DNA from: Rhodobacterales bacterium
GTDB lineage: Bacteria > Pseudomonadota > Alphaproteobacteria > Rhodobacterales > CAZPXZ01
Assembly (NCBI GenBank): GCA_965219495.1
Contig: OZ244777.1
Location: forward strand, 690,837 to 754,836
DNA: 64,000 nt
Direction of reading: 5' to 3'
This document shows, one piece after another, positions 13,352 through 46,625 of the stretch. The position numbers and the translations under genes were made by a program. How positions within the stretch are numbered: the stretch's first letter is position 1; each line of letters starts with the position of its first letter. The notes beneath the pieces are model-generated. The model ran no database searches and was not told the DNA's origin. It saw only the letters and a list, made by a program, of their open reading frames with translations.

Positions 13352-13543
13352 TCAGGCGGCGCGGCGGATGCCTCGGCGCCGCTGATTCTGGATTTTTTCC
13401 CGCTCGGCTCTCTGCAGCGCCAGGCCGATCCGGTGCAGATTGGCGGCAAGGATTGCGAGAGCGACCGTTCGAGCGAAGCCATCCCCGCCGTGTGCGCGGA
13501 CCCGGTCCAGGCCGCGGCATTCCAGGTTGTGGATGGCGGATTC
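13352..13543 (-). pseudogene. IS transposase, 3' exon-equivalent (63 codons)
   Basis: Hand translation gives ESAIHNLECRGLDRVRAHGGDGFARTVALAILAANLHRIGLALQRAEREKIQNQRRRGIRRAA, with a stop at 13352-13354. It continues the protein that breaks off at 16368. Confidence 0.7.
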
Positions 13544-13600
13544 GTCGCGGTAGGAGCGCTGGTTGCCCAGCGCCCCTCCGCACAGATCCGAGCGTGCGCG

Positions 13601-14638
13601 CTAACGCACTCGGCTCCTGCCTCGGGTGTGGACGGCACGAAACCGCTGATCCGGCCATGGGTGAAGGATCCTGATTGGTGGGAAGAAGCGCTGCGTCAAC
13701 TCCGCCAATTGCTCCCATATGCGAAGGGAATTCCCACGCTGGGAGCGACGGCGCAGTTGCTGGAACCAGAGGCTCCTGACGCTTCGCACGAACGCTTGGA
13801 GGAACGCATGGCTGGAGGGAACTGCATAGTATTGCAGCCACCCCCTGAGCACGCGTTGCAGCCATCCGGCTACCTCCTCCGGGTCGTCGTGGCGCCGACG
13901 GCGCAGGACCTCACCGATCCGCTGAAGCGTGCGCCGGGCGCGTTTCGCTGCCGGCTTCCGCCCGAGACTGAAACCGCCCTTTCTTGAGGTTCGGCAGTAA
14001 TGCGTGAACCCCGGAAAATCAAAGGTTTCGGGGCGCCGCTGACCGCGTGAGAGGCGGTCCGCCTTGGCGAAGCGTCCAAACTCGATGCAGCGGGTCTTCC
14101 CGGGATGGAGAGCCAGACCGAACTTGCCCAGCCTTCGTTCAAGGTCGTCAAGGAACTGTTCCGCATCCTGCCGGTGTTGAAATCCAACCACGAAGTCATC
14201 CGCGTAGCGCACGATAACCGCGTCTCCGTTCGCCTCCTGCGGACGCCATTTCCGGTCAAACCAGAGGTCGAGGACGTAGTGCAGGTAAATATTTGCCAAA
14301 ATTGGCGAAACAACCGCTCCCTGGGGAGTTCCCCTGAGGTCGTCCTTCCACTCGCCCCCGTCCATGACGCCAGCGTTCAGCCACTTGGTGATCAACCGAA
14401 TGACCCGCCGGTCTCCGATCCTGTGTTCCAGAAACCGGATCAACCAGTCTCGGTCCAAATTATCGAAGAAACCGCGGATATCGGCGTCAACAATCCAGTT
14501 GACCTTCCGCCGCGCTATACAGGTGGCAAGAGCGTCCAGAGCGTCGTGCGCCCCGCGCTCTGGCCGGAACCCATGGCTGAACCCGAGAAATTCGACCTCG
14601 TAAATCGGGGTAAGGATCGACTCCACCACTGCCTTCTG
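13601..14638 (-). pseudogene. group II intron reverse transcriptase/maturase, C-terminal segment
   Basis: QKAVVESILTPIYEVEFLGFSHGFRPERGAHDAL...GTPQGAVVSPILANIYLH...VRYADDFVVGF...FPGFTHY, plus the maturase X domain (RVLRGWLQYY). No HNH/En domain is present. The stop lies inside domain V. Confidence 0.85.
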
Positions 14639-14644
14639 GACGAT

Positions 14645-15221
14645 AAATGTTGCGCAGCAAGTTATGTTGCGTAGGCTGGGTAACTTGCTGAATGGCACAG
14701 ATAGAGCCCGACTCTCCGCAACATAATCTTTTACGCTCACAAAGATTTTCAGCCCCTTCTTCTCCTTCCACGGCCGGTTCGGACCCGGTTCAGCCACGTC
14801 GCAAAGCGCCAACGCCCTGGCCTTCATCTCGAGATCAATCTCGGCATAGATGTTGGTCGCGTTGATGTTGACGTGGCCAAGCCACGCGCGGACCGTGTTG
14901 ATGTCAACCTTCGCTCGCACCAAGGCGCAGGCGGCCGTGTGCCGAACCACGGGCGGAGTTATCTTCCGCCCGGCCAATGCCGGCATGCTGGCCGCACAAC
15001 GCTCGACAAGGCGATAGACCCCGAACCGGATATAGGCTCTTCGGTGCCTGCTATGGACTGTGTGAATAGTTCTTCGAACATTGTCGTGTCTCCTGATTGT
15101 TGGAGCCACGATCATGCAGACAGGGTGCCGTGAAAGAAATTATGTCGCGCAAAATATGTTTGAACTCTTACCAATCAACAGGTTCCGTACTCTCCGCAAC
15201 ATAACTTGCTGCGCAACATTT
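14645..15221 (-). mobile_element. 577-bp non-autonomous element with perfect 27-bp terminal inverted repeats and a 6-bp flanking direct repeat
   Basis: IR-L at 14645-14671, AAATGTTGCGCAGCAAGTTATGTTGCG, is the exact reverse complement of IR-R at 15195-15221. GACGAT is present at 14639-14644 and at 15222-15227. Removing the element plus one repeat copy restores the RT sequence LEDKIVQKAVVE. Confidence 0.8.
14672..14980 (-). pseudogene. tyrosine recombinase (phage-integrase family) C-terminal fragment inside the mini-element
   Basis: LAGRKITPPVVRHTAACALVRAKVDINTVRAWLGHVNINATNIYAEIDLEMKARALA contains the HxxR and GH boxes and the catalytic Tyr region. There is no N-terminal or core-binding part. 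Confidence 0.6.
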
Positions 15222-15584
15222 GACGATCTTGTCCTCCAGGGCGACAATGCCAAGCGGTCGTGTTCCCCCATCCGGCTTCGGGATTTCAACCCGCAGCGAT
15301 GGGAGCGCTCGATACGCTCCGCTGTGCACACGGTCATGGAGTGCGTGCAAATGCACGTCCAGTTCCTCGCCGTATGCCTCCCAGGTCATCCGGTCAACTC
15401 CGGCCGCAGAGTGCGGGTTCAAAGCATGAAAAGCCCCTCTCAGGACCTCCACCGTGATATGGTGCAGAAGCGCCGTGAGGCGTTCCTTCGGATTCCTCGT
15501 GGCTGCCTGCCGTATCCGGTCCGCCGCTTGTGACACGCTTGCCCGACCCTGCGTCACTTCGGGTTTTCCCCGGTACGGCTTCAA
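15222..15584 (-). pseudogene. group II intron reverse transcriptase/maturase, N-terminal segment
   Basis: MKPYRGKP...ERLTALLHHITVEVLRGAFHALNPHSAAGVDRMTWEAY...RVEIPKPDGGTRPLGIVALEDKIV (RT domains 0-2). It is cut after DKIV by the 577-bp insertion. Confidence 0.85.
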
Positions 15585-16367
15585 GCATCAGGCACCCCAC
15601 AGTTCGGTACGGAGCCTTCCGCAGGTGCGTCGAGGTGAAGACTGACCCGGCCCTACCCTCGATCGGATACTGCGTTTGCTCCGTCCTTCGATGATGCCGC
15701 CGCCAAACTGATGGGGGTTTCCGCCACCGTGTGCGGAGCCATCGGCTGCAGCATCGCCACCTGTGCCCTGAGGCCCTCGCTCCAGCCGGGTTGTGTTGTC
15801 CCGGCCATCAACGCTTATCGGCCTCATCCGCCAGTCTGGAGATCTCCGTTTCATTTCCCGGCACAGCCGGTTATAGACGCGGTCTTTGACATTCAAGGAT
15901 CATCCTGTCTGATCCCCAGACCTTCCGGACTTTCGCTGCTGTACTTTCGAGTATTGCCGCCTTCAATATGCCGGAAGCCCCGGTGCGCGCTCCTCAGTTC
16001 TTCCGCACCGACACTGGCCATCGGGTAGAAAGGAGACCCTTGGCAACTCCAATTACCCCGCAAATCAGCTTCATGCAGGAAGTCCTTTTCGACGCTTGAT
16101 CCGTTCACTCTCGTTACGGCCCTACTCTTTGCTCGCCCCCCGGGCTGATCAGACTCAAGCGGAACCATCTCCACTCCGTCTCCCAGGACTTTTACTTCCG
16201 GGCTTCCAGGTCACCGGGTCACCCCGTGCGCCTGCCGGATATGACTACGGCGCCAAACTGAGAATTGCGCCGGTGGGACTTGCACCCACTAGTACAGCAG
16301 CTAGTCTCGCTGCACCCTTTCCGCCGGACTTGCACCGGCTATCCACACCAGAGTTAGCCTGGCGTAC

Positions 16368-17518
16368 CACCGCCGGATGTTGCCGCCGCGCCGCGGCGAA
16401 CTCGGCGCGCGCCTCGTGCTCCCGCGCTTTCTGCGAAAGAGCGCCCTTCGCCGGCAGCGCGTTGCAGTCCAGCAGCGCGTCCAGCCGCACCCGGTTGGAC
16501 GGGCTGTGGAAGCCCCGGTCGAAGCTGCAGCCCCGCACCGACGGAAACAGGGCGAGGGTCTCCGACAGCAGCGGAACCGCCGCATCGACGTCGTCTTCCG
16601 CCCACGAGATGCGGTGGTGCAGGACCAATTGATGCGGGTCCTCGACGATGCACACCGGAACCCCGCGTTCGACCATGCGCCCGGCCTTGCCCTTCGCGCA
16701 CCAGCGGGTATGCGGCTCGAAGATGGAGAACACCTTCTCTTCATGCGGGATCGCTTCGCCCTGCAGCAGCCGCCGGTCGACCTGATCGATCTGGCGAAGC
16801 GCATGATCCATAAGTCCTTGCACGGCATCGATGTCCCATGTCTCCGCCCCGGCTGCCTCGAGTTCCCGCCGCAGCCGTTCCGCCCGCGCCACCAGCGACC
16901 GGCAAAGCCCCAGGTAAGCGCATACGCGGTCCGGATACCGCCTCTGCCGCCGGGAATTGCGGATCTTGTCGAACAGCCGCTTCACCTGCCGCCGCAGATT
17001 CCGGCTCTGCCGCCAGCCACCAAGCCCGAAGCCAGCTGTGCGGAAATCCGGATCAGGCGCCGCATCGCGTCCCACAGCAAGTTGACGTCGGTCGGATCGT
17101 GCACGTCGGTTTCCACCACAAAGGAATCGGCCCGCGCCCGGAGCGGCGCTTCCGGCGCCTGCCCGAACAACGCGTGGCCCGCCTTCACCACCAGTTCGTT
17201 GATCTCGTTCAGAAGCTCCGGCGTCAGCAGCGAGACATTGCGCACCAGCGTCCGGTGCTCGTACCGGCGATGGTCGTCAAGCCCCGAATGGCCGAGCATC
17301 TCCCGAACCGTCTCGTGGCAATTGGCAAGGTCCTGCAGACGGTCGTCGTCGCACCGGATGCCCTGCTTGAGGGTCGCCAGCACGAAAATCCGCCACAAAT
17401 CCATGCCCGGGCGCCCAAGCCCCCGGTCCACATCCGGAAGAAAATGCGCGTCCAGCAGGTCGAAAACCTGCCGGCGCAACGCTTCGTCGCAGTACAGGTG
17501 CTGGATGCCCCGCAACAC
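16368..17518 (-). pseudogene. IS transposase, 5' exon-equivalent (also carries a 1-nt frameshift near 17020-17035)
   Basis: The ORFs 16982..17518 and 16245..17075 are two frames of one protein. They would join if one G were restored in ...GGCTTGG|TGGCTGG..., giving SAQLASGLGGWRQSRNL. Homology-like sequence stops at ...ARRQHPAV (16368). The N-terminus may extend upstream to about 17650. Confidence 0.7.
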
Positions 17519-45365: not shown

Positions 45366-46625
45366 ATGAGAAAGTTACTGCTCGCGGCAGGCCTACTGGT
45401 CCTGCCGTTCGCCGCCACTGCGGATGCGCAGGAGCGGGAAGTGCTAACGCATTACACGGCAATCGCTCACGCCATTTACGAGGACTCGCTGACCGCAGCG
45501 CACGATTTGGGCGATGCCGTTGATCAATTCCTCGCCAAGCCAACGGAAGAAAACCTGGCCATCGCGCAGACCGCATGGAGGGCTGCACGTGTTCCATACC
45601 AGCAGAGCGAGGTCTATCGATTTAGCAATGCGGTCGTTGACGACTGGGAAGGCAAGGTAAACGCATGGCCCCTTGACGAGGGTTTGATAGATTATGTTGC
45701 GGCGAGCTACGGAGAACAATCGGAAGAGAATCCAGGATACACCGCAAACGTCATTGCCAGCGCGAACTTCAGTTTTTCCGGCCGAGAAATCGATGCCAGT
45801 GTCATTTCCAAGGAATTCCTGTCCGACACGCTTCACGAACTGGGCGGAGTAGAGGCCAACGTCGCAACCGGCTACCACGCCATAGAATTCCTGCTGTGGG
45901 GACAAGACCTGAACGGAACATGAGCCGGCGCCGGCGAACGTCCGGCGAGTGACTTCGACTTGGCGAACTGTTCTTCGGGCAATTGCGATCGCAGGGCTGC
46001 TTACTTGATGGCGGCTACGGATCTCCTGATCGACGATCTGGAATGGATAACCGCTCAGTGGGCGCCTGAAGGCGATGCGCGCGAAGGATTGCTTGCCGGC
46101 GACATCGTTGCAGGTCTTTCCGCCATTGTGACGGGAATGGGCAGCTTGTCTTACGGCGAACTCGCCGGAGAACGCATGCAGCTTGGGCTGCTGCTGAACG
46201 ATCCGGAGGAAGAACACGACTGCTTCAGCGATAACACGCATTTCTCTCACTATTACGACGCGCTCGGCATCCGAAATGTCTATCTCGGAGAATATCGACG
46301 GATAGATGGTTCGGTAGTATCGGGACCGGGGCTGTCGAGCCTCGTCGCCGCCGCTGCGGCGGATGTGGACAATGCCTTGCGTGGTCAGCTCGATGCTACG
46401 ATCTCGGCCATGGATGAAATCGTGGCAGCAGCAGAGGGTGGAGAAGCGTATGATCAGATGATCGGCGATGGCAATGCGGCGGGCAACGCCCGGGTGCAGG
46501 CTGCGATCGACGGCCTCACGGCGCAAACTCGTGAAATCGAAAATGTGGTTGCCGCCCTTCAACTGGATGCGATCGAATTCGAAGGCTCCGATAGCCTGGA
46601 CGATCCCGAGGCGGTGTTCCAGTAG
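45366..46625 (+). pseudogene. imelysin (peptidase M75, IrpA-like) interrupted by one in-frame TGA
   Basis: The signal peptide is MRKLLLAAGLLVLPFAATADA. The GYHAIEFLLWGQDLNGT(TGA 45921-45923)AGAGERPASDF sequence continues in the same frame to 46625. The ORF track shows the two halves as 45210..45923 and 45960..46625. Confidence 0.8.

Follow-up and report, generated by a model that had tools for sequence, protein, structure and literature searches.

A 64,000-nucleotide (nt) stretch of DNA from a Rhodobacterales bacterium (positions 690,837 to 754,836 of contig OZ244777.1; referred to here as the window) carries a 577-bp element that has inserted in ltrA, the reverse-transcriptase gene of a group II intron, and that contains only fragments of genes. 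The observations described below are very probably best explained if this element is a miniature, non-autonomous recombinase-in-trio (RIT) element that moved after losing its interior by deletion, and if the 6 bp that flank it on both sides are the region in which crossover takes place. RITs were described between 2009 and 2013 as elements with inverted repeats of 34 to ~50 bp that exist in multiple copies per genome; accounts of them include those of Van Houdt (2009/2012), Ricker (2013) and Nielsen (2017). The genes of these elements are arranged as ritA-ritB-ritC between terminal inverted repeats (PMC3414803; PMC5737581), and a table published in 2023 gives RIT properties as 'not tested' (PMC10214605).

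The interior of the element points to its relationship with RITs. Among annotated DNA, it is matched most closely by 'tyrosine-type recombinase' genes that stand third in trios of 1245, ~950 and 996 nt, i.e. in the RIT layout, and it is collinear on both sides with L006, a contig from the same metagenome sample that carries a full trio: positions 64-408 of the element correspond to the 3' end of ritC plus the DNA downstream of it, and positions 415-472 to the leader and the first 23 nt of ritA. At the junction between these segments (ritA'::'ritC; Table 1) the DNA from ritA codon 8 through about ritC codon 224, or ~2.9 kb of a 3.4-3.5-kb RIT, has been deleted. The element lacks ritB and does not have the three adjacent ritA-ritB-ritC genes that characterize an autonomous RIT in the strict sense; judged from its sequence, the segment from 14645 to 15221 is an internal-deletion derivative of such an element and not a strict member of the group. 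What remains of ritC is ~105 codons, in which the minus-strand match to Pfam Phage_integrase is limited to profile positions 121-169 of 172. These results bear out an earlier note on the window, which had proposed from the letters alone that the interior codes for just the last ~100 codons of a phage-integrase-family recombinase and that the whole might be an internally deleted, non-autonomous derivative of a tyrosine-recombinase element, for example of the recombinase-in-trio kind. The same note had listed HxxR, GH and Tyr boxes in the fragment; the window copy indeed keeps the Tyr, the GH box and the Arg, but has a Pro in place of the His of the first box (PVVRHT).

Further details of the gene remnants are of interest in relation to the sister copies considered below. 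Members of the RitC subgroup have an extra C-terminal helix (PMC8138268); the sister copy P0004 ends in ...KGLMAFLKSL like RitC, and the tail of the window copy is frameshifted. An 11-bp deletion between 14748 and 14749, which can be seen by comparison with sister copies, has cost the window copy its ritC stop codon, and the ritC frame consequently runs on into ltrA as a chimeric open reading frame (ORF) of 504 amino acids (aa). A second frame begins at the ritA start; it differs from that of the ritC fragment and gives an ORF of 40 aa (14959-15081) across the deletion junction. The stem-loop of the ritA leader (window 15084-15117, minus strand; -16.6 kcal/mol, z = -2.65), which has been kept in the mini element, may serve in translational control of ritA. 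Like hairpins exist upstream of the ritA start in L001 (9149-9198; z = -4.4) and L002 (9146-9195; z = -3.9).

The ends of the element are also of the RIT type. The two 27-bp terminal repeats are exact reverse complements of each other, as had been recognized before; the sequence AAATGTTGCGCAGCAAGTTATGTTGCG has just two matches in the window at <=3 mismatches and 0 in 100 shuffles, and the repeat continues imperfectly, with 82% identity over 51 nt. Each terminus carries three copies of a motif that the recombinases presumably bind, two direct ones at 0 and +17 and an inverted one at +70, so that both tips show the arrangement ATGTTGCG-N9-ATGTTGCG with an inverted copy farther inside. The 16-mer ACTCTCCGCAACATAA lies at 14711-14726 and 15189-15204, as stated in the earlier note, but the idea that an extra hairpin copy is peculiar to the left end did not hold up, since a third, inverted motif lies 70 nt inside the tip at the right end as well as at the left. 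The ATGTTGCG-N9-ATGTTGCG pair, in inverted orientation, also bounds the RITs in L001, L002 and L006, and a scan of one genome per species for this pattern yielded a further ~20 end pairs with RIT trios between them; trios bounded in this manner include those of L006, L018, L050, L054, L093, L114, L119, L134 and L135. The counts given here and below for RIT ends refer to the matches listed in that pattern-selected sample, where the search pattern dictated the first two motifs but left the third free. Where it is present, the third inverted copy lies at +65 to +74 nt in 82 of 87 RIT-type ends, and the three-motif architecture is common to ~150 such ends. The N9 spacer is free to vary among them while the 8-mers are invariant, which is the pattern that would be expected of binding sites. 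In viral contigs the generic end motif was found as 11 single ends. An isolated TTATGTTGCG at window position 45692 was considered as a solo RIT end and rejected, as it has no surrounding architecture of this kind.

An element of small size, with terminal inverted repeats that match perfectly and a short direct repeat on its flanks, might also be taken for an ordinary miniature inverted-repeat transposable element (MITE) of an insertion sequence (IS) with a DDE transposase, in which a recombinase fragment had been captured by chance. We regard such an origin as extremely improbable. Collinearity with a RIT extends through the whole interior, the three-motif ends are those of the RIT-type ends just described, and every longer element found with these ends encodes tyrosine recombinases only, with no sharing of the ends by a DDE IS. 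The interior has no DDE domain, in agreement with what had been read from the sequence earlier.

The host gene provides a clear view of the insertion event. Excision of 14645-15227, which leaves a single GACGAT, restores an uninterrupted ltrA ORF of 467 aa reading ...RPLGIVALEDKIVQKAVVESIL...; the restored protein aligns over the junction with another intron reverse transcriptase with no gap at the junction, and the restored DNA aligns in one piece with annotated plasmid ltrA genes. The intactness of the restored ltrA therefore indicates a true insertion into a target in which GACGAT had been single, and ltrA is inactivated by it. The presence of GACGAT on both sides was confirmed, and its length is exactly 6 bp because the bases that adjoin the two copies differ from each other. 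The identity of the host as a group II intron is evident from the Pfam matches and homology breakpoints listed in Table 1 and from an Rfam group-II-D1D4-4 match at 16109-16291, so that the window holds at least two nested layers of mobile DNA, an intron with a mini-RIT inside. The 5' region of the intron (window 15556-16315) differs between the window and two metagenome versions: several partial tandem copies of window 15556-16313 lie in L138 (1-1642), and in L140 (792-1234) window 15556-16315 is missing. Upstream of the intron 5' end (window 16245-17518, minus strand) there are overlapping ORFs of 276 aa and 178 aa, for which a Pfam search gave no match.

Evidence that the element moved in its deleted form comes from sister copies, which had been suggested as a check in the earlier note and which we retrieved from long-read metagenome assemblies of 2-11x by using the 40-aa junction-spanning ORF as a tag. 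The window's own locus was recovered as L138, at ~246 kb of a 1.03-Mb metagenome contig, with an element 100% identical to that of the window. A second copy (L003/L139) of 588 bp, which is without the 11-bp deletion, lies at ~618 kb on the same contig, i.e. ~370 kb away. A third (L142), of 554 bp and 92.8% identical to the window copy, has the same ritA'::'ritC junction and a further 35-bp deletion; it resides in a different ltrA gene, the flanks of which are only 56-64% identical to those of the window ltrA, and it is inserted at homologous codons in the same orientation (PTFEYKVA|QRAIL, compared with VALEDKIV|QKAVV in the window). L142 has its own exact 6-bp repeat, GTGGCG, and here too, removal of the element restores the ORF over the insertion site. 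In addition, there is a remnant with one end only (L143) that adjoins ATGGCG|CAG in a umuC-like gene. The element or its remnants thus exist in two unrelated ltrA genes, beside an adh_short gene and in a umuC-like gene, and all copies stop exactly at the tips of the inverted repeats. Independent mini-RITs were found in metagenome-assembled genomes (MAGs) of Paracoccaceae, namely L072 2327-2904 (578 bp) and L084 1504-1602 (99 bp), the latter consisting of two ends only with a 6/6 repeat of CGGGTC, and in a Longimicrobiales MAG (L078 1282-1732; 451 bp), which is again a deletion derivative with a ritA leader and a ritC tail.

The copies bear directly on the question of whether the small form ever moved. 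A full-length RIT could have inserted in the window ltrA and lost its interior at that locus; truncated RIT remnants with other breakpoints are known (L143 and L005, which has a longer piece of ritC and one end only), and no autonomous partner was found. Such decay in place is nonetheless very improbable, as copies in at least three contexts share the ritA'::'ritC junction exactly, and one of these contexts is a different ltrA with its own 6-bp repeat. The occurrence of the same junction in different contexts means that the mini element moved after the deletion.

Movement of a different kind would be that of a passenger: the element, with inactive RIT ends, might have been spread passively by retrohoming of the group II intron, by means of a reverse transcriptase from another intron copy, and by homologous recombination. 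Introns of this type are multicopy, and the second copy is joined to an intron 3' flank that it has in common with the window (99.4% over 1130 bp) through the same GACGAT|tip junction. The whole second copy, however, is flipped relative to that intron flank, and its far tip adjoins GTTGAC and a 5'-truncated adh_short gene that starts exactly at the inverted-repeat tip. A simple homologous inversion between two copies was considered as the origin of this arrangement and rejected, as the flip extends to the very tip of the element. The divergent ltrA flanks and different 6-mer of L142, the umuC-like gene beside the L143 remnant, and a 26-bp module that is present or absent at the same insertion (see below) also speak against a passive passenger, in that all of the events are located precisely at the tips of the element. 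We consider passive spread unlikely, if slightly less so than decay in place.

Table 1. Positions in the window of the mini element, its component parts and the gene that it interrupts
Feature	Position	Strand or length	Remarks
Host group II intron	13542-16315	-	Homology breakpoints at 13542 and 16315; Pfam RVT_1, GIIM
ltrA halves	15584-15222 and 14644-13601	-	Split by the mini element
GACGAT, left copy	14639-14644		Target DNA; ltrA codons Ile-Val on minus strand
Mini element	14645-15221	577 bp	27-bp perfect inverted repeats; gene fragments only inside
ritC-side terminal inverted repeat, AAATGTTGCGCAGCAAGTTATGTTGCG	14645-14671	+	Two direct ATGTTGCG at 14647-14654 and 14664-14671
Third, inverted motif of ritC-side end	14711-14726	-	CGCAACAT at 14717-14724, 70 nt from tip
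ritC 3' fragment	14735-15052	-	~Residues 224-328 of 331; Arg, GH and Tyr boxes; tblastn 64-76% identity to RitC
ritA'::'ritC deletion junction	15053-15058		ritC homology stops at 15052; ritA-side homology to L006 begins at 15059
First 23 nt of ritA	15059-15081	-	ATG at 15081-15079; matches L006 1357-1379
ritA leader	15082-15125	-	Stem-loop pairing the GGAG ribosome-binding site
Third, inverted motif of ritA-side end	15140-15149	+	TTATGTCGCG, 1 mismatch, 70 nt from tip
ritA-side terminal inverted repeat	15195-15221	-	Exact reverse complement of 14645-14671
GACGAT, right copy	15222-15227		

The nature of the 6-bp repeat can be approached through the RIT relatives. In RIT ends, a hexamer lies directly outside a terminal 10-bp half-site, WWATGTTGCG, and in most elements the hexamer of one side follows a perfect inverted half-site, ACATWW. 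The resulting ACATWW-N6-WWATGT has the structure of a tyrosine-recombinase core site whose overlap is 6 bp long. The outer half-site is part of a 20-bp palindrome of two abutted half-sites, and the layout of such a locus can be written as x-O-[element]-rcO-[palindrome]-O-y, where O stands for the 6-mer, rcO for its reverse complement, and x and y for the flanks. One end of most RIT relatives carries a 26-bp module that consists of the reverse complement of the flanking 6-mer plus the 20-bp palindrome (L140, L001, L002, L033, L050, L054, L072, L078, L093, L096, L114, L119, L134 and L135), and the three 6-mers of such elements co-vary. In 14 palindrome-bearing pairs, the outer and far hexamers agree at 6/6 positions in seven cases, 5/6 in four and 4/6 in three, and the inner hexamer is the reverse complement. 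The palindrome was seen at the ritA end in 7 cases and at the ritC end in 6. Three mini elements without a palindrome (those of the window, L142 and the 99-bp L084) have 6/6 direct repeats. The earlier suggestion that the 6 bp are a crossover core rather than a classical duplication is consistent with their location between inverted half-sites in ~20 RIT relatives, but the 6-mer is not a fixed sequence: GACGAT and GTGGCG differ, and the 6-mer is therefore derived from the target. Its length was found to be 6 bp in both of the simple insertions (window and L142), as had been asked in the earlier note, and it is unmatched in L003.

The window's insertion itself exists in two forms. L140, a 3x-coverage contig, represents the same insertion in another sample and has an extra 26 bp (ATCGTC + AAATGTTGCGCGCAACATTT) at 1568-1593, i.e. 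between window positions 15221 and 15222, so that the module-bearing and module-free forms are probably alleles. The 26 bp are bounded by a 10-bp direct repeat, CGCAACATTT, and their loss by replication slippage would therefore be easy. No palindromic module was found anywhere in the 64-kb window. As to the origin of the module, we considered models based on a footprint with later reinsertion, on an inverted dimer that then suffered a deletion, on fold-back synthesis and on intermediates that resemble hairpin telomeres; no model fits all of the observations. In a metagenome scan for the palindrome, a RIT subfamily within IS66 transposase genes (at DHLPL|YR|Q; Pfam) showed target hexamers that vary at wobble positions (TATCGC, TATCGA, TATCGT and TACCGC), and the hexamer beyond the palindrome co-varies each time. 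Co-variation of this kind is not possible by independent point mutation, and these 6-mers are written or homogenised by recombination.

Solo palindromes (AAATGTTGCGCGCAACATTT) that have no adjoining RIT occur in L153 (2765-2796), in L151 and L157, and in L144 and L146. The one in L153 lies at the DHLPL|YR|Q site of IS66 with direct 6-mers TACCGG and TACCGC (5/6), and the flanking 6-mers of the others are inverted and co-varying; these palindromes may be excision footprints or minimal elements. RIT subfamilies are also seen at fixed codons in genes of other mobile elements, for example IS66 tnpC in L155, IS21-like istA in L033 and L114, and ltrA in the window and L142; L147, L154 and L156 were assigned to IS66 tnpC by flank sequence only. 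Removal of the element restores the ORF in L114 and L155, the examples examined, and L033 and L114 are inserted at the same istA codon in opposite orientations. This distribution suggests homing of RITs to conserved motifs within the transposase and reverse-transcriptase genes of other mobile elements. Another structural feature of some RIT trios is that they are bracketed by kilobase-long inverted repeats, as in Rhodobacter pEJ01 (L002 4790-5927 and 9261-10398; 1138 bp, 100% identity) and in L001, L064, L096 and L137. Each of these long repeats has a toprim-domain gene inside and a RIT terminal motif at its end.

The proposed mechanism draws on comparisons throughout. A RIT of ~3.4-3.5 kb lost its interior from ritA codon 8 to about ritC codon 224 and kept both termini. 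As no intact recombinase is left, movement of the mini element would depend on a cognate RitABC that acts in trans on its three-motif ends. The 6 bp would be the crossover (overlap) region of a tyrosine-recombinase core site in which the terminal WWATGTTGCG is the inner half-site, and strand exchange over these 6 bp would put the target 6-mer at both junctions. A junction that carries a 6-mer might prefer near-identical target 6-mers in a favourable context, and some degree of matching between the element-borne and target 6-mers may be needed; the two ltrA sites have the context ACAAG-N6-CA in common. The differences of 1-2 nt among the three hexamers of some relatives would fit segregation of a heteroduplex overlap. 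In the palindrome form, the internal site (half-site, rcO, half-site) would be an inverted copy of the far junction, and recombination between the two would flip the element; such flipping would account for the flipped second copy, the random side of the palindrome and the opposite orientations of L033 and L114. Circle junctions, if formed, would read CGCAACATTT-N6-AAATGTTGCG. In the study by Nielsen et al., RIT DNA was protected from exonuclease but showed no circle junctions, and hairpin forms were proposed (PMC5737581).

The same 6 bp might instead be a classical target-site duplication around a RIT derivative, produced when staggered cuts are filled in or segregated with no matching of sequence. 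This alternative is unlikely in our estimate, though it deserves more weight than those considered above. The 6-mers of the two ltrA insertions differ at 4/6 positions within their common ACAAG-N6-CA context, and the half-sites of the targets barely resemble that of the element, both of which would agree with a duplication. Tyrosine recombinases, however, leave no gaps to fill, which is established enzymology. Moreover, in module-bearing elements those 6-mers that differ do so by just 1-2 nt, the pattern expected of heteroduplex segregation with a near-identical partner, and the L142 and L143 insertions are in unrelated genes and yet have 6-mers only 1 nt apart, both followed by CA.

Several observations weigh against the interpretation of the element as a mini-RIT that moved in its deleted form by crossover within the 6 bp. 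A cognate full-length RIT with identical ends was not found, and the nearest intact trio (L006) has 76% RitC identity; among the longer relatives that the earlier note had called for, the end architecture is the same but the ends themselves are not, and no full-length parent is included. The exact 27-mer inverted repeat had 0 matches in genome_contigs, a 25-mer of it with one degenerate base had 0 matches in JGI metagenomes, and in plasmids the whole element gave only matches of 66-77% to ritC genes and no copy. A search for a parent among 5.8 billion proteins gave its best matches to the sister copies (96%); these were followed by remnants that are truncated (87% and 83%), and trios ranked below them at <=76%. 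There are no rit genes in the 64-kb window, so that the trans-acting partner is a postulated one. The 6-mers of the second copy are unequal (GACGAT and GTTGAC), as are those of the full-length L006, and the flanking repeat is therefore not universal; we interpret the unmatched 6-mers of L003 as the result of a rearrangement. If a carried 6-mer takes part in a plain double-strand exchange, one foreign and one native 6-mer are predicted unless the two match, and the two ltrA 6-mers differ at 4/6 positions. Several of the sister contigs are 2-4x long-read assemblies. Finally, RIT transposition has never been reproduced experimentally (PMC10214605).

Two further results of these searches concern short proteins and a neighbouring gene pair. 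The best 120 database matches to the ritC fragment (P0001-P0120) are all 78-227 aa long, even on megabase contigs. At least some of these matches are frameshift-split genes in low-coverage long-read assemblies (the ritC gene of L006, for example, is called as 151 + 200 aa) and not members of a family of truncated proteins; other short matches are real remnants. A recombinase pair that neighbours the element in L142 was rejected as its partner, having only ~32% identity to RitA and a different repeat motif. In this pair (L142 1-2152), a RitA-like protein of 518 aa and a RitB-like gene overlap by 4 bp and the adjoining repeats have the motif TTATGGGAACC; it may represent a distant RIT-like family with other end sequences.

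The mini element can be compared with several known groups of mobile DNA. It resembles RITs in its homologous ritC 3' end, its ritA leader and start and its end architecture, and it differs from them in that all three recombinase genes are missing or truncated and in its length of ~0.58 kb as compared to ~3.4 kb. Like MITEs, it is small (577 bp), has terminal inverted repeats and a short direct repeat, lacks a working transposase, arose by internal deletion and exists in several copies, which carry the same deletion at different loci (window/L138, L003/L139 and L142) and, apart from L003, a flanking repeat of constant length and variable sequence. Unlike MITEs, its parent has tyrosine recombinases rather than a DDE enzyme, its copy number is low (2 on the 1-Mb contig), and its flanking repeat probably results from crossover in an overlap region and not from gap repair. 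Integrases of the Tn916/CTnDOT type, with their 'coupling sequences', and the core sites of the Xer/dif type also work with inverted half-sites around an overlap of 6-8 bp, and their heteroduplex overlaps segregate at replication; in contrast to these systems, the mini element has no evidence of conjugative functions or of host Xer involvement, and its recombinases are inferred. Elements of the Tn554/SE/GInt type are similar in that several tyrosine recombinases act together and a 6-bp junction unit is central to movement, and the 1-2-nt differences between the 6-mers around RIT relatives resemble the 6 bp carried over by Tn554 and SEs (PMC10214605). Members of this type, however, have no terminal inverted repeats, are strongly site-specific and deliver the donor 6 bp to one side only, whereas the mini element ends in perfect inverted repeats, is known from at least four target genes and is bordered on either side by the native 6-mer (window and L142).

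Taken together, the observations allow a broader, tentative proposal, which we put forward as a possibility somewhat short of an even chance. RITs, including the mini form, would insert by strand exchange over a 6-bp overlap beside the terminal half-site and would prefer near-matching 6-mers in conserved motifs of mobile-element genes (ltrA EDK[IV][VA]|Q, IS66 tnpC DHLPL|YR|Q and IS21-like istA). They would carry or generate the 26-bp palindromic module as an internal full core site that would allow flipping in place and leave solo palindromes behind, and mini-RITs of 99-590 bp would constitute a cross-phylum class of tyrosine-recombinase MITEs. A literature search found no account of mini or non-autonomous RITs; a key paper from 2013 was outside its coverage, so that an earlier mention of the palindrome or the flanking repeats is possible.

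RITs are widespread, and the mini-RIT of the window bears on the way in which they move. It offers a clean insertion with an empty site that can be reconstructed; its sister copies fix the exact ends of the element, its 6-bp junction unit varies with the target, and two alleles of one insertion are available with and without the palindromic end module. Together these features provide a minimal substrate of ~0.58 kb and a concrete, falsifiable model for the action of RitABC. A point for genome annotation is that ORFs called as short 'integrases', for example those of 86 aa and 125 aa, are remnants of such elements and not genes. If the broader proposal is true, a first RIT transposition assay could use the window copy, with its alleles that have or lack the module, as a ready substrate.

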